Shown piece after piece: positions 30,330-64,000 of a stretch of DNA of 64,000 nt (the stretch's first letter is position 1; the number at the start of each line of letters is the position of its first letter). Made by a program: the position numbers and the translations under genes. Below the pieces are notes generated by a model. It was not told where the DNA came from, ran no database searches, and saw nothing but the letters and a program-made list of their open reading frames with translations. The stretch is from Blasia pusilla (lineage: Eukaryota), in assembly GCA_050084515.1 (NCBI GenBank), contig CM114271.1, forward strand, positions 28,892,001-28,956,000, in the 5' to 3' direction.

Positions 30330-33020
30330 TGACCTAAAGAATTGGATTGCAAAAGTACCATCTTGAAACGTCACATGTTCAAATAAGAATATTGATCAAG
30401 TGGGAAAGGGTCATTCTAGCAGTAGCAGTCAGCGCCCAATTGAGAGGCCCAATTGAGGCTCCACACGTGTTCTCGATAACGAGCAAGGTACCTAATCACT
30501 CGAGCATCTCAAGATTCCTCAAACCCAGTTTTATGAATGTAGATACCATAAGGTTTGATGAAAAGAGTTGAGTCACATGACCACTCAGAAGCTCAACTCA
30601 GCAACAAGAGGGATATGAGGTACACCTCGAGGAACATGATTGCCACTAAGAGGGCCTTTAGTGGTGGTGTTTTCGATAGCCTGAGCCTGCCTTAGCTAAG
30701 CGTGTTACAAAGTTATGGAGACATGTTGCGACGCTGTTAGCCAAACGTGTGGCAATACGGAACATTAGAATTCTATTGGGCTCAGACTAGGATTCAAGTG
30801 CGTTGGAGTCTCTAGAATAAGACACGAGTTGTAAGCAAGATGCAAGGTTTGTCAGGCGTCTCAAGTAATGATTGTCATGACCTAGTAGAACTAGACCAAA
30901 TGCCAAGCTAGACCAAGTCCCACAAGAGTTGGGCACGAAGGCAGTTGGAACCTGACTAAGTATTTAGGGGTTCTCCGCGTTTGAGGTCATAACGACTAGA
31001 TCTAAGATGCGTTTGAGATGAAAATGTGGAGAAACCATTTAAAGTATGAGAATTATAGTTGGGTTGAGGGGCATAACAAGCAGCCTAAGAGGACTTTGCC
31101 AAAGACGGGGGGGTGAAGATTTCTAGAAGTATATGTAAGGGGAGGGTCTCCAAGGGAGTTTGGGACCCAAACCTCACCTTGGAAAACAGTGGGGGTGAGC
31201 CAAGAGTACAGAATGGATCGAGAGGTTGGATTCGAGAGGCGGACACCAAGCCAAGTCTACGGAAATTAATTACAGAAATCAACTTAGCTTGGGCCTTGAC
31301 CCTCGAGTCAGATATTGGGCTTGGGTAGAGACTCGTTCGAGGTTTATTGGGTTGTTGGGACCATCAAGCGTGCTAACAATGTTTTACGTTCTTGGACTAT
31401 GAATGAAGTTTGTGTTGAGTCTTCAAGTCTTCAACTATGACGGGCTCTGGTGGCGTCCGAAGGTACCTGGGCCCACTCGCACTTGTCCGTCCTAGGGACG
31501 GACATAAGTGCGCGGATATGAACATGTCCATGTGCAATCTTGAACATTAATGGTGTATGAAGTGCCTCCCAAAACGTAAAAGACCATGGAACCCTCGCCT
31601 GTCGTCCATTGATCCCCTGCTTTGGGTCTATCTCAACCTCATTTCTCAATGGCTTGGTCACTCTCATAGCACCCGGAGTCACCACAGCAACAATCTTCAC
31701 CTGAGCCACAATACATATTAATCTCAGACCAACGTAATCCTCCCATGTATCTTGATACAACATAGAGGTTGGAGCCAAAGTAGCTATTCATACATGCAAT
31801 CTGTTCACTAGACCCACTCTCCAATGATGACGATTCAACCACGAATGGAAGTTGGGATGGTTCTTCACTCAAAATCGCTCGATACCTTATGTCACTCAAC
31901 GTAATACCACGACCACCGCTCAAACTACCCTATTCTTCCAAACCTTGGAAGAACATTGTGATGAAAACCCTGCCTCACACACTCATACGCTCAGACTCAC
32001 TAAGACTTTCTCACACTCCTCACTATCTCACCCACCTTAATGCTAACCTTGTAATGACACATTAGGCCTTACGCTCACTCAATCGCTCGAGCTCACCTTA
32101 AGCCTCATATACTAGCTCATCTAAGCTATTGAAAACCTCGGGTTGTACACAAGACCCCTACTCGGGCAGCCATCCTATATCCACAAACACACTACACGCG
32201 CAAGAAGTCTATAATTGACATCATTGCTACATCCATCTAGCACAAGATTTATACGATATCCGACACCCTTAATGACATGAGACAAGTGTGGGAAAAGGGA
32301 CTCGCATGGACAACCTAAACACGCACATCATCACTCTATAGCATAATAGCACAATCAACATTGTCTGCTCTATGTGGTACGGCTACCTTCACGAGATGAT
32401 TATCTCCTTGACCAACACGTCGAATCTCTTGTCAACAGATGGGGACTATTCGCCAACATCCTCCTGAGTGCCTCCACCTCTAGCACTTCATCGCAAGTTT
32501 TCAATGTGGATCATCCATCTCAACATTGGTCGACACAATACTAGTGAGTCAAAAACTATGCCAATGACTCACGGTAGACCAGGAGTCTCGCTGAAAATGA
32601 CAAACCCCACTCCACTACACCAAGTTGTGAAGCAACTAGTGAAATTTCTCCAACCAACCTCCAAGAAAACCATGGCTTAACTACGTCATGCCACTCAACC
32701 TTGTAGCCCAGATACCATGGTCAACTTGCTCACCACGTCCGACATCCCAACCATGTAGCCCAGCCAACCGTGCAGAAACTCTAGTTGGGCGGCCAGTTGC
32801 AAACCCGTCACTACCCCGTGCATGGTCTAGCCTCAGGCCTGAATTCTGTCCAAGCCCATTATTGTACAATACCCTATGCAAGAGGTCCGTCATAACTCTA
32901 GTTGCTTTGTCCAAGAGTGATAGCCTTTGTTTGAGTTACTTTCATTTAATGCATTGTCATCCCAGTGCTCAAACCTCCATCCTTGACGCCAAGGGATAGA
33001 AAACACAACCTCAACATTTA
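30330..33020. mobile_element. Mosaic of decayed LTR retrotransposon fragments, including an LTR piece (~30870-31430, +) related to the chromovirus LTR at 56446-57431
   Basis: 31128-31167 aagtatatgtaaggggagggtctccaagggagtttgggacc aligns by eye with the reverse complement of ~56900-56945 aagtacgagtaagggggaaggtctccaagagtgcttgggac, and flanks stay colinear. The rest is non-coding or broken. Boundaries are approximate. Confidence 0.55.
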
Positions 33021-46945: not shown

Positions 46946-48874
46946 TTTTAAGGCAATGTTTTGAATATGAAGTTAAAATTTTGCATTTTTCCAAGTATTT
47001 GTAAAAAGACATGACCGCCTGCTTCCAAGTCCGTCTCCTAATGTGGCATGTAGCTATCCTTACGATGAGAAATATGTTTCTTTGTCTTCTGGCTTGGTGC
47101 TTTGCTATTTGGATACAAGTTTGATATTGCTTGCATGTAAGCCAAGAACAGATCCTGTCTCTGCCCAAGAACTGAGCCGCCTCTTATGAGTGAAATGTTG
47201 ACATGAAAAAGACTACCCTCAAATTGTTTGCATTTCTCAAAAAATTGGATAATGAAGTCAGAATATAGTCTGAATCATCCTACGATGTATTAAAGGATTC
47301 ATTTCTCACTCACCATTTTCTCTTCTCACATGGCATGCAATGACAGAATTTTTGGAGCCTAATGATGAATGTTTGTGTTTTTGTCTGTCTTAATCACAGG
47401 TCTTCCAAGACCCAGGGGGAAATTACATTATGGTAAAGAAGATGGGGAGTTGTTGTTTGGCGCTTTGGCGGTGTTTGGCTCATTTTTCAACCTAACAGTG
47501 TTGCGTCAATAAGAGCCCGACTTCATTATGATATGATATACACATTATTTGGCGATAAACTCGCCTTATTGCAGGCATTTAGTAGAGGCCTCTTGATTTT
47601 CACCATAGTATGCTATGAACAGTGTTAAAATGCAATAAAGTAAGTGAACATTTTTTGGACTTGTGTTGGCTTTCATGTGTGAATTCCCTAATTAGCTTCG
47701 TGTATAGCCTCTTTGGTTTATTTTTTATTTTTGAATGTTCCCCATGGCTTCGGAAATATAGGTTGGGGTGTCAATAATAGGCATTGCTAGCATGTGAATA
47801 TTTACCAGTCATGGACTGCATCCTTTCAACTTTGACGGTGTCTTTGAAGGCTTAGGCAATATACCACTGTCGTTGGGCATTGCTCGAATTCATTGATTTG
47901 TGTTTAATGTTACCAATGGACTGCATCGTATCATTTTCACTTCATTGCTTTCTGTTCAATGTTAACAATGAAGATTGCATCATTCCTCGAATAATTAAGC
48001 CAGTATAACTCGTGAATGTAACAGAAGTTGGCGCAAAATTCTAGGTGTGCTTGTGGGAAACATTATCTATCATAAAACCAAACTAGAAAATGGTGGTGTG
48101 AGAATTATCAGAGGCCATGGCACCGCAGTGACCATTTGGCTGGAAAATTGTATATTGATATATGTAGCCCATACATTGGTTGTATCTAGTTATACAAGGC
48201 AGATGCTATAACATAATACAAGCTCCTCTTAGAATTCCTCTGACAAAGTGCAATAGTCCCCACTGGCGCCAGCATCATAGCACTCCATGTCGGTATAATT
48301 GGAGCTTCCACTCTGCACATTATTGTCAAAATTGTTGGATTCTCAACATCCACTTCTTTGAGCACCATTAATCTGATCGGCCTCCTTATATGAGGAGAAG
48401 CCTAGATTGATGGTTCCGACTTAGTCATAGAAATATGACGTAGGTGGTTTATGGAGTAGCGTTAATAGGATTATCTAACCCTATATTGCATCAAGGTGAG
48501 GGGCATCCTCATGCGTTGCGGGGGTCCGGGGCACAGCCCCTAATATGCCAAGACAACGCGGGGTTTTTTTTTACCTATTTTTCTTTGTTTTATCAATAGA
48601 AACGAAGAAAAATAGGTTAAAAGCCTTAGTTTCCCGAGAAGTGAAATAATCCCCAGCGGTAGCGCATTCTCGTATGTTGAGTTATCTCCTTGTACAGGTT
48701 CCATCGAAGCTCTTCTATGAGCGCATGGACGGACGAGGCAACTTAGTATCTCCAAGTTTTGTAATAGATTTCAATGATTTTGTCACTTTCTGTTTTCTCA
48801 CATGGTATTAGAGTAGTAGGTTTTCCAGTATTTTTTATCTGGTGATCTAGTGTGTCTGTCCAAAATCTTGAGGG

Positions 48875-51800
48875 ATGGCTACTTGTTTGTCAGTTCGTGC
48901 TCTCCCTCCTCGCCTGGGTGAAGAGAAGTTAGATGGATCTAGCTATACATTGTTGCAGTGTAAAACTCATGGAAAAAGGTACTCTTTCAATCGCAAAGTA
49001 TTAAGTTCATTCCCAAGAGATCACTTTTTCCTGAGTAAAGAGAGGTTTTATAAGAAAAATCAAGAATAACTCCTTCACTAAGCACTTCACTAATTACAAT
49101 AACTAAGTCTTCACTAGTACAAAAGACTCTTCTTCCCTCTTGGAAAAGACTCTCCTCAAGCAGATAAAGACTCTTTAGAATCTTGAATAACAAAGTTTCA
49201 ACGAAGACCTCAAAGAGATCTCAAGAAGGAGCGGCTCATCCTACTTTCAGAATTGAATTTGTCATGGCAGGTTACTCACTGTCTAATAGCTTTCCTACGC
49301 TCTTCTGAATTATCTTGTGGAATTCTGAAATCACAATACTCAACTCTCATCCCTACTACAACCCAATAAGGTTTTACACTCAACTCCGCACATTAGAAAA
49401 CATGAGAGAAGACACTTCAACTTCATCAAAGAGTGGAAAGAACCAAAAATTATTACAAGCTTCTGAGGGTACAAGACTCTTCGGCTTGGATCATCCCCAA
49501 AGAACTCCTTACACAACCCACCAAGATGCAAGGGAATGACCCCTTCTTCTTCTTCTCTATTCTTTAAATAGTTTCTTGCAATTCATGACTCTTCCTATTC
49601 TACTCTAAATTTCTAACTACTAATCCGGCCCTCCTTGGTTTAGATCCTCCAACCCTCCATCTTCCTAAGGCGGTTGGTTGCTCTGGCGTTTCATTTTTGC
49701 TTCCTTCTCAACCACTGCGCCTCTTCATTTCCGACTTCCAAAACCGCCCTAGAGTTTCATTATTTACAGTCTTCGCGGTCCTCGTAATCCTATCTTCCGC
49801 CGCGAAGAGTGCTCCTTTGACTTTTCTTTCTTTTTTCTTTCTTCCAAAACATTATTTTTCTTTCTATTCCTATTCTTCATACACCTTTCCGCTTTGTGAA
49901 GACTCTTTGATTTCCTCTTTTTCTTCCTCTTTCTTCTTAGAGTTCTTAGTCTTTGCTCTTGGATCTTTGGTCTTTAGTCTTTGTTCACAGTCTTTGCACG
50001 AAGACTCCCTTGGATCATCTACTGTAAAGAAGAAGTCTTTTTTAGTCTTCCTTGACAGTCTTGACCAACATTCATACTGCGATCTTCCTTGAGAAGTACT
50101 CGCGCTTCTTGCTCTACTTCTTTCCCATTCTTTTCCTACTTTTACCCAATTCTCACGCTTCCAAGACAATCCTTAATCTCTTACTATCTCTTGTCCTTTC
50201 ATCAGAGTTTTGTCATTCCATGTTTTCACATGATTTGTGTAAAGTATACGTCTTTACTTCCGGTATTGAGTCTTTAGTCTTCACTCAAGGAAGACTTCAC
50301 TACAACTTTGTACAAAAAATGATCTTTCTACCAAAATTTCAAAAATATGGGCATTACAATTGTGGAAGCGCAAAATGAGAACTGTTCAAATTGGGAGACG
50401 GCCATAGAGGTCGATTCAAATCCACAAGCTACTTTGAGTTTAGCATGTTCATTTTCATCTGGTGATATCGATCCTGTTGTATTGCTGGCATCGAAACGCA
50501 AACATGCTGAAGCTCTATATGCGATTATCACGAATGTAAGTGATTCTGTCATGACTCTCATTCAATATACGACCATTGTTGTTGAGGCGTGGGACATTTT
50601 GAAGAATCAGTATGAAACGAAGAATAAGACTCGGATTCAAAATTTGGAGAATCAGCTAACATCCGAGAAATTTTCAGAAGGAGAAAGCATGGAGCAATTT
50701 TTGACAAGGATTGAGAATCTTCAAGATTAGATGGCGTATGTAGGAAATTCAAAGTCTAGCAAAGATTTGGCACGTCGGTGCATAAGGATTTTGCCTTCGA
50801 GGTATGATAGTTTGGTCACTGCATGGAATACTCAAGCAAGACCCACGCCGCTTACTTTGAACAATTTAGTGCAATGTTGGTAGAAGAGGAAATGCGCTTC
50901 AAAGCAAGAGAGGGAAGTGATGCAACATTTATTGCCAACGTACAGAGAGGTAGAAATCAGGATTATAGTTCAAATGTCAAGAAGAAATTTCCAAGGAAAG
51001 CCTTCAAATGATTTTATTGTGGTAAGCTAGGTCATCTTATCAAAGATTGTAGAAATAGGAGTCAGGATGAGAAGAACGATTGTTTAAGATCTAAGAAAGA
51101 GTCTGGAAATTCTGTAGAATTAGGAGAATATGAGGTAGATGCTTGGGTAGCAATCCAAGAGTTTTGCACACAGGCAGAACATTCCACTAAGTCAAAGAGT
51201 GAAGATGCAAAGGTGCTTGATAGTGGATCATCTAGGCATATGATCAATCATAAGGATTGGTATAGCTCCTTATAGCCTCTACAGGAGCCCATCGTTGTTA
51301 CTGTTGGAAATAATGCAAAGTGCCTTATAGAAGGGAAAGGCATAATTTTCTTTAGTCTCACAAAAAGGAGATGAAACTAAGTTAAGTGATGTAATGTATG
51401 TACCAGAGTTGAAGCGTAAATTGCTTTCAATATCAATATTATGTGATGGTAACTTAGAAGTTCATTTCAAGAAATGGATACCAATGGGAAAGTAGTGGAT
51501 GAAGGTATATGACGTGGAAATATCTACAAGTTGTATGCTTTCACGACAAGTGTAGTAGAAATCTTAGTAGCAGTAAGTTGTGGCATGAAAGATTTGGTCG
51601 CCTAAGCTTTCTCTTACTAAGTCAGATGTAGAAATATGGAATGGTTTCTGATCTACCAATAATTTTTGGAGTGTCGGATATATGTGAAGCTTGTATGATG
51701 GGCAAGCAACAACGACAACCATTTCCACAAGAGAGTAGCAATAGAGCAAAGGCTTCTCTAGAGCTGATACATGTTGACCTATGTGGTAAAATGAAAACAA

Positions 51801-54290
51801 TGGCATTAGGTGGTTCTTCCTACTACTTTTTAGTTGTCGACGATTATAGTATGAAGATGTGGGTGTATTTCCTTTGTGATAAGGCAAGTGCTTTTGGAAA
51901 ATTTAAAGTATGGCACAAGATGGTTGAGAATGAGACGGGAAAGAAGGTACAAAAGCTTCGCACCAATCGAGGAGGAGAATTCTTATCAATAGAATTCAAC
52001 AAATATTTGGGGGAGCATGGAATCAAGCGACCGTTAACCACGGCATATACACCACAAAAAAATGTAGTTGTTAAGCGTCGAAACCGTATACTGGTAGAGA
52101 TGGCAAGATATATGATGAAAGCAAAAGCTTTGACAGAAGGATTTTGGGCTGAAGCTGTTAATACTACCGTTTACATTCTAAATAGAAGTGCTACCAAGTT
52201 AGTGTAAGACATGACTCCTCATCAATCATACTCAGGTAAGGTACCATCAGTCCAACATTTTAGGACTTTTGGTAGTGAGTGCTTTGTATATATTCTTGAA
52301 GCATCCAGGACCAAGCTGGAGTCCAAGAGCAAGAAGTACATCTTTATGGGATACAGTGATGAGTCTAAAGCTTATCGCTTATGGTGTCCTGAGGTAAAGA
52401 GGAGACTTGTAAGTCATGATGTGGTGTTTCAAGAACAACCTCATCAAGTGGCGGATGTCAGTGGTCCGTCCATATTATCATCAATCGAAGAGATAATCCA
52501 CTAGAGCACACCATCAATGTTTACACTAGATCATCAAGAAGAAGAATTTGGTGATGATTACAAAGAGCAGTCTGCTCTTCCACTACGGTCGTCATACCCT
52601 AAGTGGATAAAGCAACTCTTGGATGGTAAGGATCCACTAGCAATTGATGAAATTGTTACACATCCGAGGAGATCCAAGAGACTAGAGGAGCATAATAGAG
52701 CTTTCGCACATCTCATCAACATGGCCTTGATGACATAAGTCTTGAAGGTGGAAGAGCCATCATGCTTGGATGAGGCCCTTGCTCATCCTCTCTGGAGAGA
52801 GGCCATGCAAATGGAGATGGATGCTATTTAAAGAAATGAAACTTGGACTTTGGTTGAGAAGCCAAAGGACAAGAAGATAATACGCACCAAGTGGATGTAC
52901 AAGACCAAGCACAAGTCAAACAGTACATTAGATAAATTCAAAGCGAGGTTGGTTGCACAAGGATGTTCACAAATCAAAGTTTTTTTATTACCATGAGACT
53001 TTTGCTCCTACTGCAAGGATGACAACCATTCAAATTGTTTTAGAAAACCAGGAACAAGGCGTTGGCTTGTATACCAATACGATGTGAAGTCTGCCTTTCT
53101 GAACAGGAGTCTCAAGGAGGAGGTGTATATATCTCAACCACCAGGTTTTGAGACACTCGGATTAGAAGAGAAAGTGTGTTTGCTTCATTGAGCATTGTAT
53201 GGGTTGAAGCAAGCCCCAAGGGTATGGTATCAACGAATAGATACATTCTTCCGAGAGAAGGGTCTCATCAAGAGTTCGTGAGAAGGAAATTTGTATGTGT
53301 TTTGCGAAGATGGGATGTATACGTTGATAGTCCTGTATGTGGATGAATTGATCATCACACTAGACCACGATAAGAAAATAGAGGAAATGAAGGAAGTGTT
53401 GAAATCTGAGTTTGAAATGTTAGATTTAGTTCTTTTGCATTACTTTATAAGGCTAGAGATTTGGCAATAGTAAGATTCTATTTTTCTCTCTCAACAAAAA
53501 TATGCTAGAGAAATCTTAAAGCCATTCAAGATGACCGAGTGTAAGGCAGTGATCTTGCCAATGGAGATAGAGTTGAAACTCTCAATGGAGGATGTTTCAC
53601 CATTGGTAGATGAAAAGTTATACAAAAAGCTTGTTGGGAGTTGGATATTTTTGTGCAACACTAGACCAGACATTAGCTTTGCCATGGGAGTATTGAGTAG
53701 GTTCTCAACTAAGCCTCGTGAGAACCATTGGAAGGCAAGGATGCGTATGTTGAAGTACGTCAAAGGCACTATCGAGTACGACATCACCTATGGGGTAGGG
53801 ACGAAAATGATAGCCTTTTGTAACTCGGATTGGGCAAGAGATTCAGATTCTTGCAGAGCAGTTCCGAGTTATTGCTTCTTGGTAGAATGAGGTATGGAGT
53901 CATGGATCAGCAAGAAGAAACCTACATTGGCTCTTTCTTCTACTGAGGCACAGTACAAGGCGGCTTGTTTTGCCTCTTGTGAAGCAGTATGGTTGAGATG
54001 GATATTGGAGGACACATGAGAAGCACTAGAAAGTGCTACTGTAATGTGGTGTGATAATTAGAGTTGCATTGCCATAGCACATAATCTTGTGTTTCACGCT
54101 CGTACGAAGCACATAGAGATCCAGTATCATTTTTTTGGTGAGTTGATTGAGAGAGAGGTTTTGAAGTAAGTCTATTGTCCAACAGAGGATAACCGTGCAG
54201 ACATCTTCACGAAAGCTTTGAGCGGAGATAAGCCTCACCGACATCTGAAGGATCTTGGCATCGGTCCAAGAAATTATTCCACATGAGAGT
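48875..54290 (+). pseudogene. Copia gag-pol polyprotein remnant (gag, zinc knuckle, protease, integrase, RT, RNase H)
   Basis: [135 protein letters not shown]. Order PR-INT-RT-RH indicates copia. Many stops. Confidence 0.95.
48954..50358 (-). mobile_element. Solo LTR (1405 bp, Athila-like family) inserted in copia gag
   Basis: TG...CA ends (TGCAGTG / CATTACA) with a perfect 5-bp TSD ATTGT (48949-48953, 50359-50363). Removing it restores YTLWKRKM. The block cctactttcagaattgaatttgtcatggcaggttactcactgtc matches ~61216-61258. Confidence 0.9.
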
Positions 54291-55053
54291 GGATATTGAG
54301 GGGGAGGGGGGTGTTGTTGGATTCTCAACGATCACTTCTCTCAGCACCATTAATTTGATCGATCCCATTGTATGAGGAGAAGCCTAGGTTGATGGTTCTA
54401 ACTTAGACATCGAAGGAGTCATAGTAATATGACGTAGGTGGTTTATGGAGTAGCGTTACTAGGATTATCTAACCCTATATTCAAAATTTTCTATTAATAT
54501 ACACGAAGAAAAGTAGGTAAAAAAAACCCTAATTTCCCGAATAGTGAAATAGTCAGAAGCCGCAGCGGTAGCGCATTCTTGTATGTCGAGTTATCTCCAT
54601 GTTCAGGTTCTATCGAAGCTCTTTTGTGAGTGCACAGATGGACTAGGCCACTTTGTATTCCAAGTTTTTTAATAGATTTAAGTGATTTCATCATTTTCTG
54701 TTATCTCACAGAAACCGGTTTCCACAACTTTGAAGTCTTTTTAGTAGAAAATACCAGATGTGGAACTCGTTGTGGCAGTATTTTGAAGGATAAAGTAACA
54801 TCTGAGCCGTCTGTCATGAGTCCTCCTAAGTTCTTCTAAAATCTTGGACACATCGACGAGCTGAGATATAGGTTCTTTATCTAGAATGGAAGAAATATCG
54901 TCTCCTTTGGAAGCTATGACATCAAATGAGGCTAGATCTTGAATGACACGGACTGTAGATAAAGTGGTGTTATAAAGATTAGAGATACAAAAATTTCTAT
55001 CATCATTCTATACTCTCCATGCCAACAAACGATCACCTTCCCATAGATCAGGA

Positions 55054-55699
55054 TGTCGTGCACATACACATCGCTACACAACATACATCATTGTCACCGA
55101 ACACACACACAAACACGTACGATCCCATGCTAACTCATGGCATCCAAACAACGAGACAAGAAGTACCAAAATATCTCCAATTAAAATAAGATCCAATCTC
55201 TCTCACAACACCATAGTTCTCACATGTGGGCACTCTCACATGTCTCTCTTAATGTCAAACCAAACCCACTCTCCTAATGAGAGGCTTGGGTTACACACAT
55301 AAAGCAAGCAAGACCATAGCTCCGCCGCCTCATACCAAGAGGTTCAACAAAGAGAGAATGAGCTCTAAAGCTCTCTCTCCTTGAGTTATATCCCTCCACT
55401 CTCCCAAGCTCTCTCCATGGTAACCTATGCTCCTAGGTCACCTCCTTAGCTCTTGACCTGATGTAGGAGGTCAAGGGCCACTTACCAAAAATAAAAAATT
55501 GATCATATACTCAAAATGGTACTTATCTAAAATAGTAAGTTCTTCAATATGGCTCCAAATGAGCCGAAACAAAAGGGAAACCTCCTCTTTCAGGTTTCTC
55601 AGGGCCTCAGCAGGTCATCCTCGACCTACTGAGCCTGTCCTCCACTACTCACGAAGGCGCTCTACTAGATCTCACCGATCTATCCTAAAAGATGTGACA
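55054..55699 (-). mobile_element. LTR (646 bp, TGTCACATC...GCACGACA), probable 3' LTR of the PHD-bearing retroelement
   Basis: TG..CA on the minus strand, downstream of the PHD ORF and of the purine tract ctaggggggcga (55829-55840). Confidence 0.7.
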
Positions 55700-56009
55700 G
55701 TTGTCGTGCGTATACACATCGCTACAGAACATACATCGTTATCACCAAACACACACATAAACACACACGATCCAATGCTAACTCATGGCATCCAAACAAC
55801 AAGACAAGAAGTACCAAAATATCTCCAATCGCCCCCCTAGCTGGTGGTTAGGTCCCTCTAACTCCAGATAGCCATCTATCCCTACCGACCATGACATAGA
55901 TCTCTCGGACGCTAAGAGCAAGAAGGTCGGGTGCTCATGTGGCCCCATCGTTAGTCGCCTTCTTTTCATCCATGCCACAGACACAAGTCAAAATGTAGAA
56001 CTACCTACT

Positions 56010-56445
56010 CTATGTACATCTGGGACACATTCATCGTCCTTAAGGAACCCTAGTGAGAGGTGGCGTCAAGCATGCCATATGCCATCCTCTCAAACATCCA
56101 TCACATACTAGCATAGTGGCTGCACCACGGGCAAAACCACATAACATACATCGCAAGCTTGAAGGAACTACTGCTAAGCTCAGATCAACTGTATTGTCAA
56201 TGTTCGGAAGGTGACACGGCGCACAATTACGCACACGGTCCTTCCAAACTATACCATCGCGTCCCTCCAACAAGAGAACACTTGATGGCAAAACCTCACG
56301 CACTCTCAAGATGGTGCGCCCTACAGTCGCATCCAAGGTCGTGGGTGCCGTTTGTTGCAAGATGACAAATTCTCCTTGATGAAACCTCCGGATAATAGGT
56401 TGATAACCACTTCCCCGAATAGTTGCATACCTCAATGTATCCCGA
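56010..56445 (-). pseudogene. Retroelement integrase C-terminal region ending in a PHD finger
   Basis: DRDTLRYATIRG..YQP..RRFHQGEFVIL resembles the gypsy integrase C-terminal F..GD.V segment. It is followed by CMLC-x11-CDGC-x4-H-x2-C-LTPPLTRVP*GR*MCPRC, a complete C4HC3 PHD signature with two late stops. Confidence 0.85.
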
Positions 56446-59075
56446 TCATCCTGCGTCTACTCTCCTTGAACGTCAATCTTAGTGTTGCGGAAGCGTACGT
56501 TCATTAGGACACGCTTTCATTGCCAACATGCACCCAAATGCACTCACATTAGTCTGGCTTTGGGTCAAGCGGCCTTCCAACCCATCGAGTCTTCAACTCG
56601 GCGTCTCATCAAGCTCAAACTTCCCTCAATCCTAGGTTCCCAACGCGGGCAAGCCTTCCGAGACTTGGGACAGACTTTCTGGTTAGTCTAGGCACCTGAA
56701 ACAGCGTTTGCGCACCCAACTATCCAAGGGACCTTGCATGAGCCCCTAACCAAGACTCAAAAAGATGAGTCGCAAGTTGGAATCCAATAGGGACTTCCGA
56801 AATCCCTCTATTGAACTTGGTTTGGGTTTTGAAGCCCAACACCAAACTCATAATCCGTTCTGTGCCCTTGGGTCGCCTTGTGGTGCCCAAAGTGGGGTTC
56901 AAGTCCCAAGCACTCTTGGAGACCTTCCCCCTTACTCGTACTTATGGAAAACTCAAGGGTCCCCCTACCTTTGGGAAAGACCACCCGGGCCTCAATTTTT
57001 GGCCCTCAACTCGACTCCTCTTATAGTCGATTTTGGCCCATATCTCAACCTCTATACAAGAGTTTGCAAAGATCTTTAATGCATTGGAACCGGCTTGACA
57101 TAAGTTCTTCAACGCTATCTTATCCCAAACGCTTCTTGAGACTCAAAGTTATGGTCAAAAGTACAGTCAGAAACTCCCAAACGCTGCCCGCGTCTCAAGT
57201 CTGGTTTTCACCCCTTGGCCGCGTCTCGTCCAAGACTTGACTTCTCTCAAGTCTGAGTACTGCGTTTGGTTCCGGTTTCCTGGTCACGACAAATGAAACA
57301 CTCGAACACTCGCCTCACTCGCGTCTTGCCCTTGTGTTTCCTTAACTCCCAAAGCGCAAACCATCCTACCGTGAGCTCGCTAGAGTTTGGATGTTCCGCT
57401 TGGCGCTTGTTTGGTTATGAGGGTCACGACACTCACCCCTCTTTAGAGTTGATGCCCTCATCAACGCAAACCTTTTTAATTTCAAGTCATCGTGGGAAGC
57501 CAACCCCTTGACATCGAATCGCGTTCTGGTAGCTAACCCGCAATTCCTCTTCTGGCTTAAGTTTTATGTTGTCACTTGCAACACTTAGCATCATTTAGCG
57601 TCTCCTCTTCAATGAGCCTGGACCAATTCTCAACCGATCTAACCTATCAAATAAGCTAACTAAGGTTGCTACCTAAAACTACTTGTGCTCACAACTTGTA
57701 AACATCTCACCTGTTTACACGGTCCACAATTTGTACTACTCTTGGGTCGTTCTCGTATTTGACTTAACCGCGTCATTAAGTTCACTCATACACTCACGAG
57801 TGAGATCACCCCAAGCCCCAAGACAGAGTGATCTGCCCCGGCGACGCTAGGGCGAGCCCAAGTGCTAGTTGCCCAACACTTAGTCCTGTTCTAGGTACTT
57901 ATTCAAATACTAGCTCTTGCCTCAAATACTCCTTGTTTATCCTCTTGACTTACATCCTAAGCATATGAAGAACTATTCGTTGCCATGCCCTACCAAAGAC
58001 AAATTGCAAATAACACACGCATCAAATCTCCAAATTCATGCATTCCTTTATTGCAACACTAGCGTGCTCTAGTTACAATGGCCTTTGGCCCAAGCTTCCT
58101 ATGGCACTAGTCATGTCTCTAGCTTCTCCATGTACTAACGCATGTGCTTCCCTTGCAACCGTTTGAAGTCTTGCAACACCTCTTGCGCGTGTTCTAGATC
58201 TGCCTCCGCAATCCAAGTCGCCTCTTTCACATGGTAGCCTTTCCACTTGACCAAGTACTCGTACTTGTTGGCCCTACGCCTCGCACGCAAGATGGTCTCC
58301 ACCTCAAACTCCGGTTCTTTGCTTACGATTACCGGTTGTGGTCTCAACGCCTGTCTTCACTCGGGACGCTCATTATCCTAAAGATACTTCTTCAATAATG
58401 ACACATGGAAATTGGGATGTATCTTGAACTCTTCTGGCAGCTCCAATGTATACACATCCTCAAACGAGTTTTCCTTAATCACATACGGTCCAACATACTT
58501 GGTAGATAGCTTCACGGACAACTCCTTCAGAAGAGTGAGATTCTTCACACTCAACCACACTTGTTCTCCAACTTGGAATTTCACTTGGCGTCCGCTTTTG
58601 TTAGCATGCTTCACGTACCTCACTTGAGCCTTTTCAAGGTTTCTCCTTGCTCGCTCCTCTCGCTCTCGCATTTCCGCTAACAAACCTTCTACCGTCGCTT
58701 GTCGGGTCGGTGCTGATGTAGTACCCTTCGAAAGGGCTAGGTCAAGAGGCCCTTCTTGCTCACGTCCATAAGCCAGGAGAAACGGAGATTCTCCAGTTGT
58801 AGAATGTTTGGTGGAGTTGTGGCAGAACTCCGCCATACTCAACCACTTCACCCAATCTCGCTGGTCCGCGCTCACGTAATTCCTTAAGTATTGGTTCACG
58901 AGGGAGTTTACCTTTTCCGTTTGCCCATCCGTCTGCAGATGGAAGGCCATGTTGAAACTCAACTTGGTCTTGAACCTCATGAACAAGTGTTTCCAAAAGG
59001 CACGAGTAAACTTTGGATCCCGATCTGAAACAATACTCCTTGGCAATCCGTGTGCGCGCCACCAACTATCCAAGA
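56446..59075 (-). mobile_element. 3' part of a Ty3/gypsy chromovirus (integrase, chromodomain, PPT, 3' LTR from 57431 downward)
   Basis: HGLPRSIVSDRDPKFT..FW, AFHLQTDGQTEKVN, KYVGPY (GPY/F motif), IHPNFHVSLLKKY; chromodomain FEVETIL...YEYLVKWKGYHVKEATWIAEADL (58135-58347); PPT aagaggggtgag then TGTCGTGACC at 57431. Confidence 0.92.
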
Positions 59076-62000
59076 AGAGTCGACATCGCCGCGCTTCGCA
59101 GAATGGGTGTGGCGTCTTCGCGAGGCATGTTGCTAGGTCGATCTCGATGGACACCGCGCTTTGGCCTGCTACGCAACTTCGTGGTGATTCCGTCCATGAA
59201 AATACCCGCTTGGGTACGCCAGACTGCTCTTATAGTCCGCTCCCCCCCCTGTCCGTTCTTGGTCGTGACGCCGGGGCTGTAACAAGAAAGTGGGCGCTTC
59301 GCGGCTTTGCCACGCTTCCCCTTCCTATCTTCCTGCGCTTCGCCGCATGGGCTGTAAGGGTCGATCGGAACCTCGGTGCTTTGCTACTTCGCGAAGCACG
59401 GTCTATCTTGAACTTCGGTGCTTCGTGACTTCGCGAAGCACGGGGCGTTCGCCTACCCCCTTCCTCATGTTTCAGTCATCCTCAGGTTCGGGCTCATAAT
59501 ACCGGCGCACATGCATTCCATTGACTCACGTGGGCAGGGATTCTCCATGTAAGGTTTCTAATTGGAGGGATCCATTATCATAGATGGCCAATACCCGGTA
59601 GGGTCCCATCCAATTTAATTTTAATTTTCCGGGGAACTTTAGTCGCGGTTATCATCTGAAGAGCACTAAGTCGCCAACATTGATAGATTGTGGCGGAGAT
59701 GTCGATCGTAACGTTTCTTACGTTCTTTTGCACTTGGGCTGTCGTCGTAACGCCGAGCATGCGTGCTTCTTCCAACTCCACTAGAGTCTCATTCCTGTGT
59801 TCGATAACTTCGTCCGCAGCTTCCGTTCTTGTGCCCTCCAATACCCGATAAGTGGGCAACGCCCATTGAATAGGTGTTAAGGGATGTACGCCATAAGTCA
59901 GGAAGAACGGGGTGTAGTTTGTCGTCACCTTCTCAGCTATTCAGTACGCCCATAATGCTGGGGCAATTTTTGTGTCCCAATCATAGGAATAGGTTACCGT
60001 TAATCGATTCAATATTCGGCAAATGAGGCCGTTCGATTTTTCCGTCAACCCATTGGCTTTTGCGACATGGGTGAATTCAAGAATAAAGTTATCCACATCG
60101 TCTCGTCGGCCTCCAGCAAAGGTGGGGTACCTTAGCAGAGTTTTACTAGTGTTGGCCATGGACACTGCTCTCCTGCTGGCTCCCAGGCTTGATGCTCGAG
60201 AAGGAGGAGGTAAAGGTGCCGCCCGAGGTGCTCTGATCGGCTCCTCGCTCCCTGACTCTCCAAAGGGGTCCCAGGACGACTCTTTGTCCGACTGCGAACT
60301 GGCAGGGGACGTAGTGGGAAATTTGTCCCTTTCTTTCTTCTTGGTCTTCGTCTTTGGACGAGGACGAAGACTCGGAGACAAACCAGGGGTCCCAAGCCGT
60401 TCTTGTTCTCTCGCCGCCATCTGCGCCCGATCGGGCTCATTGCTCGCGAAGAGGGCTGAGAGCCTTCCATAAGTCTCTTGGGGGATTTGGCAACTCGCAA
60501 TCATCCCCCCGGTGGCGATAGGGTAAGGGTCCATGGATGGAGGTTAACTACTGATTCTTTTTACATCTACAGGAGGGTGCCTGGTGCTCCTATGCTTCCT
60601 GCCAGGTTTTCCTCCCATAGACAGAAGTACCGGTTTTCACCAAGCACCACTATCGTCCATGGGCGAAGCACCGTTCGGCGACCGGTTCTTTGTCCATTCT
60701 ATTTAGTTGGCCTATCTTCTTTAGCACCAATGCAGCAATTGTATTGTTATCTTCAAGCATACATTGTCTTACAGGGATCGCTAGAGCTAGCCGATGGTCT
60801 TTAGTAAGAATTAGAATGTGGGTTGTTTAGGAGCGAAGCTTCTTTCTCCGTTCCTTGCTTCCCAATGGGTCTTTTTCTCCCTTCCCAGCCAAGGATATGA
60901 TCCCCGGCAGCGGCGCCAAAAAGTCTTCGACTATATGTAATGTCTAAGTGTTTCTTATTTACAGTCAATTGTAGAGTTCGATCCCCAAGAGGATCATTGT
61001 TGGATGAAAAGAGAGTATAAGGTGATGATTTTGTTGTAAAAGTGTTATTGATTATGTAATTCAATTGTAGTATTCCAGTATTAGCTTCCGATCCTTCTTA
61101 GTACCTATGTTTTCTTCTTCAATTCTCTCGAGTGGAGTTTAAAGGACACTCAGGAAATTTGTTCTCTCATCATCTCGGAACCTCACAGAGACCTCAAGAA
61201 TAAAGCTGGCTTCTCCTACTTTCGGAACTCAATCCGTCGGGGTAGGTTACTCTCTGTCAAACAGATTTCATACAACTTTATATTGATTATTCCATTGATG
61301 AGAAAGGTTCGCCTGATTCACTCTTCACTCGATAGACCCAAAAATAATGTTCAGACATAAGCATCGCACATCAGAATGAATGAATGAATGCTTTACTACT
61401 CCATCAAGAATTGGAAGACTTCAAAGTATCTACAAGCTCGAGAAGGTACATCTCTCTTGCTCGGACCATTCCTACAGCATAAGGACTTCATGAGCGAATG
61501 ATGATAATAGCTTCTGTCCGGTTTCTTAAATATTCTCGAGAGTAAGATCGTTTCTATGATCCGAAGCGTTCTTGATGAAGGGTGTGTCTTTTCAATATCT
61601 GTAACTACCTAGATCTATGGTTCTCTTAGCTTTTCCTACGATCCCTATGAATCCGCGGTACAAAACTGTCCTAACTACCAATTTGATACAAAGGGTCGCG
61701 CCCTTTCCTAGTCTAATTGTTCTAACTATGTGTCGTTTCGAATCTCAATTCTGCTGAGCTTCGTTGCGCTAAATTTCCGGAGGACGAAGTTCTTCTTTCT
61801 TCTTCGTGCTTCGTGCTTCGCTCTTCGTGCTTCGCTCAAGAGCGAGGTACTTCGTATATAGAGCTTCGTTAAGCTTCGCTGAGCTTCGCGTTGAGCTTTT
61901 ATACTTCTTTACAGATTTTGACTCTCCTCTAAGGCAAATCCTTGATCTTCATCTCTCTGCCTTGTCTTGGGAGCTTGGTGATTCACTTATTCTTCTTCAT

Positions 62001-62104
62001 AATAATAGATAATCATAATCAAAATCATAATATACAAGAGTATTCGTTGAATAAAAAGATATATTCTTCAAGATTACAAAATTGTGGGTATCACAAGATC
62101 AACG
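59076..62104 (-). mobile_element. Athila-like Ty3/gypsy deletion derivative (LTR ~60923-62104, PBS, gag-integrase fusion)
   Basis: PBS TGGCGCCGCTGCCGGGGA (60901-60918, minus); gag N-terminus YPTFAGGRRDDVDNFILEF; integrase C-half ANGLTEKSNGLI..DWDTKIAPALWAY*...TNYTPFFLTYG. The LTR is related to the solo LTR at 48954. Confidence 0.75.
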
Positions 62105-62388
62105 TGTCACTCGACAACTCAATGCGGATCCCTAGACCCTTCAGCGTACCCAAATTGTGCATTCTAAATGAAAAAAAACTCTTACAACTCCTAAGGAACT
62201 TGTGTATCCGGCGCGGATGTCGGTGGTTGCTCTGGTGCAACCCCGTCTCAGAAAATAGAACTCTCATCTCCACGTGCAGTACCCGGAACCACGCTCGATG
62301 TTGTGGCTATCCTCTCCTGGCGTACCTGCAAAACATCCCAAGAAGTCCAAGGGTGTCTCTCCCGATCACCCTTGGTGTGTTGATCTCC

Positions 62389-63964
62389 TCAGATCTTGCC
62401 CCCAACCACTGCCTCAACCATCTCGGTAGGCATGGGGCTCACCAACGCAATATTTGTGATCTGTCGCATCCTCAAACGACGTTGCTCAGCTACTCCTAAG
62501 GTAAAAATCCATGTCAAGGAGTTCAAGTCTATCTCCTGACCCAAGACATGACGTCGTGATGCCTTTGATAGTGATGGTACTATCGTCACTCCTGTGGGAA
62601 ATCCCACTGCTTGCTCTCGCTCATTGGCGTTGGGCTCCACCAACATCTGTACTTGGTCATCCCAAACCAAGCCAGGTCCGGCCTCCTTGAATGCATAGGA
62701 AGCAGGAAAACTCACCAATGTGAGAAAGGTTGCCCGTGGCCTGCCAATCCTGTTGACCACAGTCAATGGCGATCGATCATCTAGCCTCATTGCCTATGAT
62801 CGACGGCCCGGATCCAATATAGAATCCACCAACAAATCGGAGGGGCGCTCCACTCTCACATATGCCCTCCGCAACACCTCATATGGTACCAAGTTGGTCC
62901 ACCAAAGTGTGAGAAAACAGAAAGTGAGGAAATCACTAAAATCTTTACAAAACTTAGAGATACAAAGTGGCCTAGTCCGTCTGTGCGCTCATAGAAGAGC
63001 TTCGATGGAACCTGAACATAGAGATAACCCGATATACGAGAATGCACTACCGCTGCGGCTCCCGACTATTTCACTACTCGGGAAACTAGGGTTTTTATCT
63101 ATTTTTCTTTGTTTCTATTAATAGAAAAATTTTGCCAGGGGCTGCGCCCCCGAACCCTTGCCCTGCACCTTATATTGCATCAGGATGCCCCGCACCTTGA
63201 TGCAACATAGGGTAAGATAATCCTAGTAACGCTACTCCGTAGACCACCTATGTCATATTACTATGACTCCTTCGACGTCTAAGTCGGAACCATCAATCTA
63301 GGCTTCTCCTCATACAAAGGGGGTTGATCTGATTAATGGTGCTCAGAGAAGTGGATGTTGAGAATCCAACACAAAGACACGGGCGATGTGCTCGTGAACC
63401 CACATTCGCCGCATCCAACAAAACTATTGTGCCAATCCATGCGCGCATTTGATGTGCACTTGTCACCACATGGGACCTCGAATTGTCCAAAATCGGTACA
63501 TTCTCCAGAATGTATGCTCGAGGACGAGATTGTTTCTCCTGCAAGTGTCACAAGATTCGCATCATCTCCCAAAACAACCTGGACCGAGAGTTAACTAATC
63601 CGCTACCTTGTCCGACACTCGACTAGCCCTGACATAGCCAACCAGCAATTACCAAGTCTATGGTCCCTACCCACTCCAAGTCCTACGCCCCCAACAATGA
63701 AATGTCCCTCGGTAGGGAACTCTGATAACCCTGAATGGCGGACGCAGACAACAAGTCGGGAAAACGGAGGCGTAATTGCGCCACATGGTGAAGTGAAGCG
63801 CGCCTCACAACATCATCAATCTCCACATATAGCTACTGCTACATGGGCACTCCAAAGTGCAAAATAGCAGCTAACCCAGTGTTGATCCCTCCAAAGAGAT
63901 CCAACACCCGAATACCCTTCTCTCGGATGCACCACCCAATCGGGGTGGTGTCCAAAGGGGTCAT
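62389..63964 (-). pseudogene. DNMT3-like cytosine-5 DNA methyltransferase domain in a retroelement polyprotein, interrupted by a solo LTR
   Basis: One frame after removing the solo LTR: motif I GIRVLDLFGGINTG, II LYVEID, IV IDLVIAGWLCQG, VI YILENV, VIII VGSRAHRPCLWWTNL, IX EREQAVGFPTGVT, X RRHVLGQEIDL. Spacing and the short target-recognition region match DNMT3-type enzymes (IRVLSLFDGIATG, SAAHRARYFWGNL, EMERVFGFP..YT, RQRLLG). Six in-frame stops; no introns. Confidence 0.9.
62908..63371 (-). mobile_element. Solo LTR of the copia family at 48333-54710
   Basis: Reverse complement begins tgttggattctcaacatccacttct and ends ttttctcaca, like LTR 48333-48802. Perfect 5-bp TSD CAAAG (62903-62907, 63372-63376). 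Confidence 0.97.
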
Positions 63965-64000
63965 AGCAGCACTCCTGCCTACTTGGGGTTCCTATGACCT

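Follow-up and report, generated by a model that had tools for sequence, protein, structure and literature searches.

Decayed DNMT3-like and PHD-finger remnants in Blasia pusilla, most likely of one retrotransposon copy of the Gypsy-DNMT3 lineage

Results

We analysed a window of 64,000 nucleotides of Blasia pusilla, in which the region of interest extends from position 55054 to the end. Read along the minus strand, a DNMT3-like domain comes first and is followed by the opening codons of a reverse transcriptase (RT). Debris of foreign LTR elements then takes up 5.6 kb, after which come the C-terminal end of an integrase together with its PHD finger, a polypurine tract and the 3' repeats. All parts named in the original prediction were found on this strand, with Pfam and tblastn scores far above chance. 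For comparison, related metagenome loci as well as public whole-genome shotgun (WGS) and RNA reads of the same species were used. Tblastn detected no other fragments of the family in the 55 kb outside this region.

The DNMT domain covers 62332-63982 on the minus strand, is interrupted by a 464-bp insertion and matches the Pfam family DNA_methylase (PF00145, E 2.2e-08); in tblastn it aligns at 63982-63383 and 62907-62332. Its N-terminal part (63372-63982), a DNMT3-like C5-methyltransferase segment with motifs I to VIII, aligns with residues 862-1057 of the Marchantia protein P0007 (59%), and its C-terminal part (62332-62907), comprising motifs IX and X and a linker, with residues 1060-1243 (54%). 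Its closest matches are proteins of liverworts and mosses (E 3e-71, 58-62% identity), the nearest solved structures are DNMT3A/B/C (E 6e-11), and motif X carries the family-specific signature LGQxxDLN (LGQxMDLN) in the motif alignment. No Pfam match to an ADD or PWWP domain was obtained in the window region. Fourteen homologues were aligned, and in 12 of the 13 that cover these motifs the catalytic Cys of motif IV, the Glu of ENV and RxR are retained; P0165 is degenerate at the motifs and the partial P0012 ends before RxR. Many algal members have ECQ rather than PCQ as motif IV. The window DNMT has LCQ in place of PCQ and 6 stops, five of them within the first 232 codons.

The DNMT domain is followed on the same strand by the first ~55 codons of the RT region (62085-62249, ending in GIRIELSSDTLIL), which align with residues 710-752 of P0013 and 20-72 of P0040 before the homology ends. 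A DNMT3-related domain thus lies inside the polyprotein frame, as the window DNMT adjoins the RT start and the order PR-DNMT-RT recurs in the context of P0007, P0013 and P0176 and in the related loci. The stop at 62248-62250 falls within ~10 codons of the ORF1 end in relatives; as part of a decayed copy, and in a segment rich in indels, it has no diagnostic value. Protease and gag of the window copy would sit beyond 64000. The splitting of the DNMT by the 464-bp element and the RT start behind it were both absent from the earlier note.

The insertion in the DNMT domain (62908-63371, plus strand) is a nested, solo-LTR-like TG..CA element that is foreign to the DNMT element. It is bounded by a 5-bp target duplication, CAAAG, at 62903-62907 and 63372-63376, further copies lie in the window at 48333-48802 and 54315-54710, and 271 WGS reads skip 62903-63371.

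In place of ~813 RT-RNase H-integrase codons, the minus strand carries a foreign mosaic from 56457 to 62084, recognised by Pfam and WGS reads. Debris of other LTR elements has taken the place of the RT/RNase H/integrase core, and by tblastn all that survives of Pol in the window copy is the beginning of RT and the C-terminal part of the integrase. The mosaic comprises unknown repeat DNA (about 60550-62080), a gag-like and integrase-like ORF pair (59578-60543) and a chromovirus integrase/SH3/chromodomain fragment on the minus strand (58135-59229; Pfam SH3_Tf2-1 and Chromo), and the part from 56457 to about 58130 is probably a chromovirus 3' LTR. The Chromo match itself (58135-58356) belongs to this separate nested element and not to the DNMT/PHD family. 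The ORFs at 59578-60543 and 60801-61097, labelled Athila-like in the original prediction, gave no match to Pfam families, and no internal LTR pair was found within the 5.6-kb foreign stretch. In other copies, 798 WGS reads that match from 56457 run on as ...GACA AG TGGTATCAGAGC, which we take to be an LTR end followed by a tRNA-Met-type primer site. Regarding the boundaries of the foreign DNA, the one proposed at 56446 is exact: reads of the same species diverge precisely there and continue with the family integrase codons FENLAIAQ(H). The other one had been set at 62104 and lies at about 62085 by tblastn.

The integrase C-terminal module (56151-56446, minus strand; RDTLRYA...LEGRDG...CAPCHLP), whose homology start was taken from loose ends of reads, is located upstream of the PHD in all relatives. 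It is followed by a C4HC3 PHD finger at 56016-56150 on the same strand (PF00628, E 1.7e-06 / 4.4e-06), which ends the polyprotein. Relatives of the combined stretch reach E 2e-65 and 77-78% identity. The tblastn match spans 56513-56013, and 56447-56513 was considered as additional family integrase; this weak similarity is contradicted by the reads diverging at 56446. The stretch contains three stops, two of them in the last 10 codons of the PHD. The PHD is a simple 45-residue finger that forms the final 45 residues in the family, and the Asp of CDxC is invariant (11/11 aligned PHDs). The nearest solved PHDs are those of CHD4, PHF21A, PHF12, KDM5A/B PHD1, ATXR5, BAZ2A/B, UHRF1 and AIRE, among which the fingers of CHD4, PHF21A, KDM5A/B PHD1, BAZ2A/B, UHRF1 and AIRE (E 4e-14 to 6e-07) are readers of the unmodified H3 tail. 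Pfam found no Chromo domain on the family integrase end; the PHD stands there instead.

Beyond the coding part lies a 3' untranslated stretch (55830-56015, minus strand) that is 68-71% conserved in at least 38 related loci. At its end, preceding the terminal repeats, the predicted polypurine tract was confirmed as AGGGGGG (55832-55838). The repeats had been proposed as a plain LTR at 55054-55699. This description has to be replaced, since the sequence is part of a split repeat of the A-coding-B-A-B type, present here as Y1-X2-Y2. On the minus strand, Y1 (55702-55829) is the first short direct repeat, corresponding to B1, with the same layout in loci L064 and L046. The long repeat X2 (55182-55699), delimited by reads and relatives, begins with TGTCA and is also the 5' terminus of full-length relatives. 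Y2 (55054-55181, ending in GCACGACA) is the second short repeat and the 3' terminus of the element; Y1 and Y2 are 128-bp direct repeats with 91% identity. The flank beyond Y2 on the minus strand reads TCCT, the predicted 4-bp target duplication. At 55699, 1122 WGS reads depart into heterogeneous DNA (agreement 0.33), as expected of element 5' ends.

Full-length relatives have the termini TGTCA...GACA and the organization X - coding - Y X Y, and all three complete relatives are flanked by 4-bp target duplications (CATA, AAGG and TTTG). The A-coding-B-A-B layout is complete in L064 and L046, and L024 has the X pair with matching ends. The window holds the B-A-B block only, with A1 beyond 64000. 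Two other readings of the repeats were rejected. A TRIM with two 128-bp LTRs around 520 bp (55054-55829) is incompatible with the same Y-X-Y block terminating full-length 9-kb relatives. A canonical LTR composed of X and Y would place Y after the 5' X, and the 195 bases past X1 in L064 resemble Y2 only at chance level (score 24). Homology between copies begins exactly at X1.

With the integrase-C/PHD alignment, 80 metagenome loci were retrieved, of which 39 were informative (at least 4500 bp upstream). In line with the proposal that one family encodes both a DNMT and a PHD, in 29 of the 39 informative loci the DNMT precedes the PHD on one and the same strand, with RT between them in 27 and gag also present in 14; the remaining 10 loci are truncated or deleted copies. 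Among the 39 there were no full-length PHD elements lacking a DNMT and no gag-PR-RT elements without one. DNMT-bearing elements did not use a different LTR or integrase end, as the relatives have a homologous integrase end and terminal repeats. A single local alignment covers DNMT to PHD in 72 of 108 algal and metagenomic proteins. The Pfam families RVT_1, RT_RNaseH, Integrase_H2C2 and rve were found across P0013, P0040, P0065, P0073 and P0176, and Pol domains also occur in 27 loci.

The lineage is widespread in green algae, and its bryophyte proteins come from Marchantia, Calypogeia and Sphagnum. The bryophyte gene order, derived from decayed copies and gene models, is gag (CCHC)-aspartic protease-DNMT-in-frame stop-RT-RNase H-DDE integrase-PHD; an intact full-length polyprotein ORF was absent from each of the 20 loci, out of 80, that were inspected for one. 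The stop after the DNMT is present in 7/7 family-1 loci, six of them independent (L024 and L078 are one locus), and Marchantia P0007 (gag-PR-DNMT) terminates at the homologous place. Another Marchantia protein, P0013, has the order PR-DNMT-RT-RH. Green-algal members (P0065, P0073, P0078, P0086 and P0165) encode RT-RH-DNMT-INT-PHD in a single ORF. In bryophytes the in-frame stop splits gag-PR-DNMT from RT-RH-INT-PHD, and the suggested single polyprotein therefore requires readthrough. Writer and reader would reside on different proteins once the protease has processed them. DNMT and PHD thus belong to one element, though in bryophytes probably not to a single mature protein.

The family is highly repeated in the species from which the window comes. 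DNA read depth amounts to 3350-4050 over X and Y, about 2290-2890 over the PHD and 3' UTR and 790-1760 over the DNMT, and to 110-600 over the foreign part, compared to 800-4000 in its flanks. Only 371 of 75208 reads placed on the region are at least 99% alike. RNA depth with the first mate on the plus strand is 140-330 over PHD/X and 10-48 over the DNMT, and 0.2-15 with the first mate on the minus strand. Provided that these are ordinary stranded libraries, the family is transcribed in sense in Blasia pusilla. Most RNA reads are less than 95% alike to the window and thus derive from copies other than the one described here.

Discussion

In this study, we interpret the region as a dead remnant, most likely of one copy, of a Ty3/gypsy-type retrotransposon of the Gypsy-DNMT3 lineage first described in Klebsormidium, and assign this reading a probability of roughly 0.7. 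The copy is inactive, as indicated by stops in both coding pieces, the change of PCQ to LCQ and the nested insertion in the DNMT, and as a decayed relic it is without functional interest in itself.

The original prediction regarded the DNMT and the PHD as two halves of one element. For the family this is the case. For the window a single insertion is likely, with the join gone and the 5' end beyond 64000, and we hold with reasonable but limited confidence that both pieces descend from it. They lie on a common strand in the correct order, complement each other without overlap and are both closest to the same subfamily of loci (Spearman 0.72, n=27). Alternatively, two insertions of the same family might lie side by side, one 3'-truncated (DNMT, RT start) and one 5'-truncated (integrase-C, PHD, 3' repeats), with other transposon debris between them. 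The family is abundant enough for this (depth 800-4000, compared to few-fold for near-identical reads), and in 6 of the 80 loci (L017, L040, L052, L064, L067 and L073) another fragment of the family lies in the retrieved sequence. Moreover, the 5.6 kb contain no paired LTRs, and neither break shows the clean borders and paired target duplication of an insertion. Against two insertions speak the shared strand, the right order, the exact complementarity and the common subfamily of the pieces, as well as the lack of an additional family fragment across the other 55 kb. The junction at 56446/56457, where nearly all reads diverge, is a one-off and likewise favours a single copy. Two insertions also require more events than a single copy that received nested insertions and then underwent one deletion, and both kinds of event are seen in relatives, namely nested inserts of 2-3.4 kb (L047, L053 and L065) and internal deletions (L001, L006, L048 and L051). 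We therefore regard two insertions as unlikely; under such a history the DNMT and PHD of the window were never one molecule, yet the family has both.

Since host DNMT3A/B/C are the nearest solved structures, the DNMT stretch might also be considered a decayed host DNMT3 gene or retrocopy beside transposon debris. This is hardly credible, however, as the DNMT continues straight into the RT start of the same family (62249-62085), contains the family-specific motif X (LGQxMDLN), lacks ADD and PWWP, and has its closest relatives between protease and RT (Marchantia and K. nitens proteins, 27 metagenome loci). That the juxtaposition is a repeat-driven assembly chimera is likewise very improbable. 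Every part is repeated in the genome and none of the listed run X1 contigs spans the stretch, but reads cover all 30 bins, 371 of them are at least 99% alike, and a regular 5-bp duplication flanks the solo-LTR insertion.

Returning to a single copy of the Gypsy-DNMT3 lineage, its closest described counterpart is KnitGypsy-Dnmt3 of Klebsormidium nitens. According to that report, this is a gypsy Pol with a DNMT3-related domain and DIRS-like A-coding-B-A-B repeats (de Mendoza 2018, PMC5890265). Based on sequence comparison, the present family is a homologue of it. The K. nitens protein P0176 (PR-DNMT-RT-RH-INT) is colinear with the bryophyte proteins; it shares 45% identity with P0040 along 929 aa (40-43% within the DNMT) and reaches 39-41% with the DNMT pieces of the window and 49% with its integrase-C over 51 aa. 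In contrast to the K. nitens element, the family described here has a land-plant (liverwort-like) host, a high copy number, sense transcripts and an in-frame stop after the DNMT. Its integrase ends in a PHD, whereas the partial P0176 stops about 45 residues short of the PHD position; the word PHD has 0 occurrences in the article's text (PMC5890265).

Chromoviruses, too, carry a small histone-tail reader as the last part of their integrase, and by analogy the PHD probably acts like a chromodomain as an integration tether. The family differs from chromoviruses by having a PHD and not a chromodomain, and in addition a DNMT and split repeats. Methyltransferase and histone reader are likewise combined in one LTR element in the EpiLTRs/DAM-LTRs. 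The 2026 preprint describes these as LTR retrotransposons with DNA methyltransferase(s) and a histone reader, namely a Dam-like adenine methylase, a chromodomain and, at the pol 3' end, a DNMT that is sister to DNMT4 (bioRxiv 10.64898/2026.05.21.726589). Compared with that description, our family has a DNMT3-like domain before RT (in algae between RH and INT), a PHD and no Dam; no Pfam match to a Dam-like adenine methyltransferase was obtained in 16 family proteins and the three minus-strand frames of the region. The A-coding-B-A-B repeats are shared with SymbioDIRS-Dnmt3 and PAT/Ngaro-type DIRS elements, and SymbioDIRS also has a DNMT3 in Pol. Those elements use a tyrosine recombinase, whereas here the integrase is of the DDE type with zinc-binding and rve domains, the ends are of the TG..CA type and the target duplications measure 4 bp; family proteins matched rve and Integrase_H2C2 and not Phage_integrase in Pfam.

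Host DNMT3A/3B/3L combine the methyltransferase with ADD, a PHD-like domain that reads H3K4me0. The resemblance noted in the original prediction extends to the DNMT3-type catalytic domain and to a PHD similar to readers of the unmodified H3 tail. Unlike in the host proteins, these domains lie at opposite ends of the polyprotein, in bryophytes with the stop, RT, RNase H and integrase between them, and the reader is a simple 45-residue PHD and no ADD.

Gypsy elements with DNMT3 and the same repeat layout (Klebsormidium, PMC5890265) and writer-plus-reader LTR elements (EpiLTRs) are already known. In the literature outside subscription journals and supplements (including those of PMC5890265), no PHD-bearing DNMT gypsy element and no DNMT gypsy in bryophytes was found. 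What appears to be new is that a land plant carries the family in many copies and with sense transcripts, and that the PHD is its constant partner. The streptophyte case had so far consisted of one alga with few copies, and the lineage is now seen to thrive in bryophytes.

It is tempting to consider what the two domains might do in live members. Judging from its sequence, the integrase-borne PHD would tether the intasome to chromatin without H3K4 methylation and thereby away from active promoters, following the same logic as the chromoviral chromodomain. The DNMT, made together with Gag as the tail of ORF1, might be packed into particles in Gag-like amounts. Its predicted activity would methylate the new cDNA or the new insertion. 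A wider and tentative scenario, which we consider doubtful at present, is an ancient green-plant gypsy lineage in which a DNMT3-type writer and a PHD that reads the unmodified H3 tail have been passed on together from before the chlorophyte/streptophyte split. Within the polyprotein the DNMT would have changed place, giving RH-DNMT-INT in the chlorophytes and PR-DNMT-RT in the streptophytes, and the lineage would still be transcribed, with hundreds of copies in a land plant. Gag-PR-DNMT would be the major translation product there, the particle methyltransferase would pre-methylate the cDNA, and the integrase-PHD would steer it to H3K4-unmethylated chromatin. If this were true, the lineage would follow a self-silencing, 'stealth' integration strategy and might have acted as donor or recipient as plant DNMT3 genes evolved. 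Retrotransposons with their own methyltransferase invert the usual view of methylation as host defence. Because Marchantia is a genetic model, the system is experimentally tractable, and it could be used to ask how writing 5mC benefits a transposon and whether the chromodomain can be replaced by a PHD as integration tether. Across the lineage, the pairing of PHD and integrase is constant in the present data.

A family with DNMT and PHD in one element

The DNMT and PHD pieces of the window were originally predicted to be two halves of one polyprotein. This is supported at the level of the family, and for the copy in the window a join is likely, if unproven. The observation itself is confirmed with corrections, and the kind of element is already known as Gypsy-DNMT3.

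Eighty metagenome loci were collected with the alignment of the integrase C-terminus (INTc) and PHD alone, which gives an unbiased count, and seven domain queries were mapped onto them. Only loci in which 4500 bp or more precede the PHD entered the DNMT count, and there are 39 of them. A DNMT lies upstream of the PHD on the same strand in 29 of these, with reverse transcriptase (RT) between them in 27 and gag also present in 14. The 10 loci lacking DNMT are 5'-truncated or internally deleted, and gag-protease (PR)-RT without DNMT was found in none of the 39. The DNMT-bearing loci share integrase end, 3' UTR and terminal-repeat start with the window at 67-71% nucleotide identity. Therefore, neither pattern named beforehand as contrary to the prediction, full-length PHD elements without DNMT or DNMT elements with another LTR or integrase end, occurs in the 39 loci.

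At the protein level, the DNMT piece matches liverwort and moss proteins (Marchantia, Calypogeia, Sphagnum; E down to 3e-71). Domain order is gag(CCHC)-protease-DNMT in Marchantia P0007 and protease-DNMT-RT-RNase H (RH) in Marchantia P0013. The INTc/PHD piece matches proteins at 77-78% identity, as well as RT-RH-integrase (INT)-PHD proteins of ~1040 residues, and cross-comparison revealed DNMT in several PHD-matching proteins too. Single ORFs encode RT-RH-DNMT-INT-PHD in P0065 (1916 residues) and P0073 (1774 residues). When the DNMT-to-PHD part of P0065 served as query, 108 proteins matched, the named ones being from Haematococcus, Pleodorina and Klebsormidium; 72 cover at least 91% of it in one alignment. 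Locus counts, single-ORF proteins and spanning alignments thus bear out a family with both domains in one element.

Internal-deletion derivatives show that the element ends plus the PHD side often survive: gag-PR-DNMT is joined to INTc and PHD in L001 and L006 (two of the 29 loci), and gag to INTc and PHD in L048 and L051. The family also nests in its own copies: L040, L052 and L073 have inverted pieces of a second copy, with minus-strand RT and DNMT, within or beside the first.

Element ends and split repeats

Six copies of ~90% identity define the exact element ends. Repeat X stands first and Y-X-Y last, with no Y behind the 5' X, and the termini read TGTCA...(T/C)GACA. Gypsy-type elements with a DDE integrase and these split repeats lie in loci L064 (1972-11177), L024 (1679-10805) and L046 (2846-11151). 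Perfect 4-bp target duplications flank each of the three elements that retain both ends (CATA, AAGG, TTTG). The split-repeat ends replace two equal LTRs.

In the window, the 3' block on the minus strand consists of Y1 (55829-55702), X2 (55699-55182) and Y2 (55181-55054; 91% identical to Y1). The sequence at 55054-55699, initially described as an LTR, is indeed a terminal repeat, not a plain LTR but X2 plus Y2. At 55699, the match of 1122 WGS reads to the window breaks off and the reads run on into heterogeneous DNA, which is the pattern to expect where elements elsewhere begin with X.

The copy in the window

On the minus strand, 63982 to 62332 encode the C5 cytosine methyltransferase domain (Pfam DNA_methylase E 2.2e-08) with motifs DLFGG (I), AGWLCQG (IV), ENV (VI), RAHR (VIII) and, C-terminally, NEREQAVGFP...LGQEIDLN (IX-X); motif IV has LCQ, the normal form being PCQ. 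A nested 464-bp TG..CA element (62908-63371), flanked by the 5-bp target duplication CAAAG, splits the DNMT between motifs VIII and IX, and 271 reads of the same-species WGS run skip exactly this insert. It is a solo LTR or small non-autonomous element with further copies at 48333-48802 and 54315-54710 (three in the window, 77-89% identity). Some copy is transcribed, since 79 RNA reads of run X18 cross from its end into other DNA. Next come ~55 codons (62249-62085, minus strand) that match relatives right where their RT region begins. The 18 bases at 62250-62267, at the ORF1-end region, are absent from 141 WGS reads of other copies and are an insertion private to this copy.

Family homology ends after the RT start and 5.6 kb of other material follows on the minus strand, comprising unknown repeat DNA, a gag-like and integrase-like ORF pair without Pfam match (59578-60543), initially labelled Athila-like, and the integrase of a chromovirus carrying SH3 and chromodomain (58135-59229; Pfam). 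The segment up to 56457 is probably the 3' LTR of that chromovirus. Reads of other copies matching to 56457 continue as LTR end plus TGGTATCAGAGC, which we take to be a tRNA-Met-type primer site. The predicted boundary at 56446 is correct to the base: family homology restarts there, and reads of other copies run on from this point into the family integrase codons FENLAIAQ(H). INTc and the PHD that ends the polyprotein occupy 56446 to 56016 (minus strand; Pfam PHD E 1.7e-06), followed by a 3' untranslated stretch and, at 55832-55838 on the minus strand, the polypurine tract AGGGGGG. The two coding pieces are similarly decayed, with stops numbering 5 among 232 codons and 1 among 192 in the DNMT and 3 among 166 in INTc/PHD.

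We consider that the DNMT and PHD pieces represent one insertion, with a probability of about two in three (0.65-0.7). Two separate family copies lying side by side would also account for them; no join is seen, the breaks lack matching duplications, and 6 of the 80 loci have a second family fragment nearby. However, both pieces lie on one strand in the correct order without overlap and have their closest relatives in one and the same subfamily (rho 0.72, n=27 loci). No third family fragment occurs in the remaining 55 kb of the window, and relatives commonly show nested insertions and internal deletions.

The first 55 kb contain only three ORFs of at least 180 aa. On the plus strand, 51632-52207 holds a further integrase-core ORF (Pfam rve E 8e-11); on the minus strand, 31491-31811 gives a gag-like but weak match with P0007 (34% over 107 aa).

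A stop codon between DNMT and RT

In 7/7 family-1 loci, one shared in-frame stop (...SPKVFA*QPMA...) closes the DNMT frame, with RT continuing in that frame. The stop lies at 7311-7313 in L049, with homologous stops in L064, L024, L012, L033, L078 and L038. Six of these loci are independent; L024 and L078 are one genomic locus from two records (99% identity across 9.9 kb, flanks included) and count once. P0007 terminates at the homologous place. Given the stop in all seven loci, the main product in bryophytes would be Gag-PR-DNMT, and RT-RH-INT-PHD would arise by readthrough. A gag-pol boundary at this position is unusual. In the window copy a stop occurs no more than about 10 codons away from it, which proves little in a decayed, indel-rich stretch.

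Copy number and transcription in Blasia pusilla

For comparison within the species, one WGS run, two RNA runs and a contig set were aligned to the window at no less than 85% likeness. DNA depth (both directions summed) was 3350-4050 over the X/Y repeats, 2290-2890 over PHD and 3' UTR, 790-1760 over DNMT and 110-600 over the foreign part. Only 371 of 75208 reads are at least 99% alike to the window, which puts the family at roughly hundreds of copies. RNA reads fall strongly on one side, first mates on the plus strand reaching a depth of 140-330 over PHD/X and 10-48 over DNMT, and those on the minus strand 0.2-15. In libraries of the common stranded type, these would be sense transcripts. Most reads are less than 95% alike to the window and thus come from other copies.

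Relationships of DNMT and PHD

Among solved structures, the family DNMT is nearest to DNMT3A/B/C (E 6e-11). Fourteen homologues from algae and bryophytes were aligned, 13 of which cover the motifs with catalytic Cys, ENV Glu and RxR; 12 of these 13 retain all three. P0165 is degenerate at the catalytic motifs, and P0012, a partial sequence, stops short of RxR. In motif IV, ECQ stands in place of PCQ in many algal forms. Among P0065, P0073, P0077-P0079, P0098 and P0093, many have ECQ and also ENT instead of ENV, Cys and Glu being kept. In green-algal members, the DNMT lies between RNase H and integrase, not before RT.

The PHD is nearest to those of CHD4, PHF21A, PHF12, KDM5A/B PHD1, ATXR5, BAZ2A/B, UHRF1 and AIRE. 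Because these fingers read the unmodified H3 tail, not H3K4me3, the proposed parallel with the ADD domain of host DNMT3 is a reasonable analogy, limited in that the polyprotein has the writer towards one end and the reader at the other.

The text of the searched literature yielded no record of members in bryophytes, of how abundant and expressed they are, of a PHD as constant partner or of the stop that closes ORF1, all of which appear to be new. According to the legend of Fig. 4c in de Mendoza et al. (2018; PMC5890265), KnitGypsy-Dnmt3 has, like the family, an A-coding-B-A-B layout with a DDE integrase; the text of that paper makes no mention of a PHD. P0176, a partial protein from K. nitens, stops some 45 residues short of the PHD position. 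It is colinear with the bryophyte proteins (PR-DNMT-RT-RH-INT; 45% over 929 residues, 40-43% in DNMT) and has the odd motif X LGQxMDLN in common with them.
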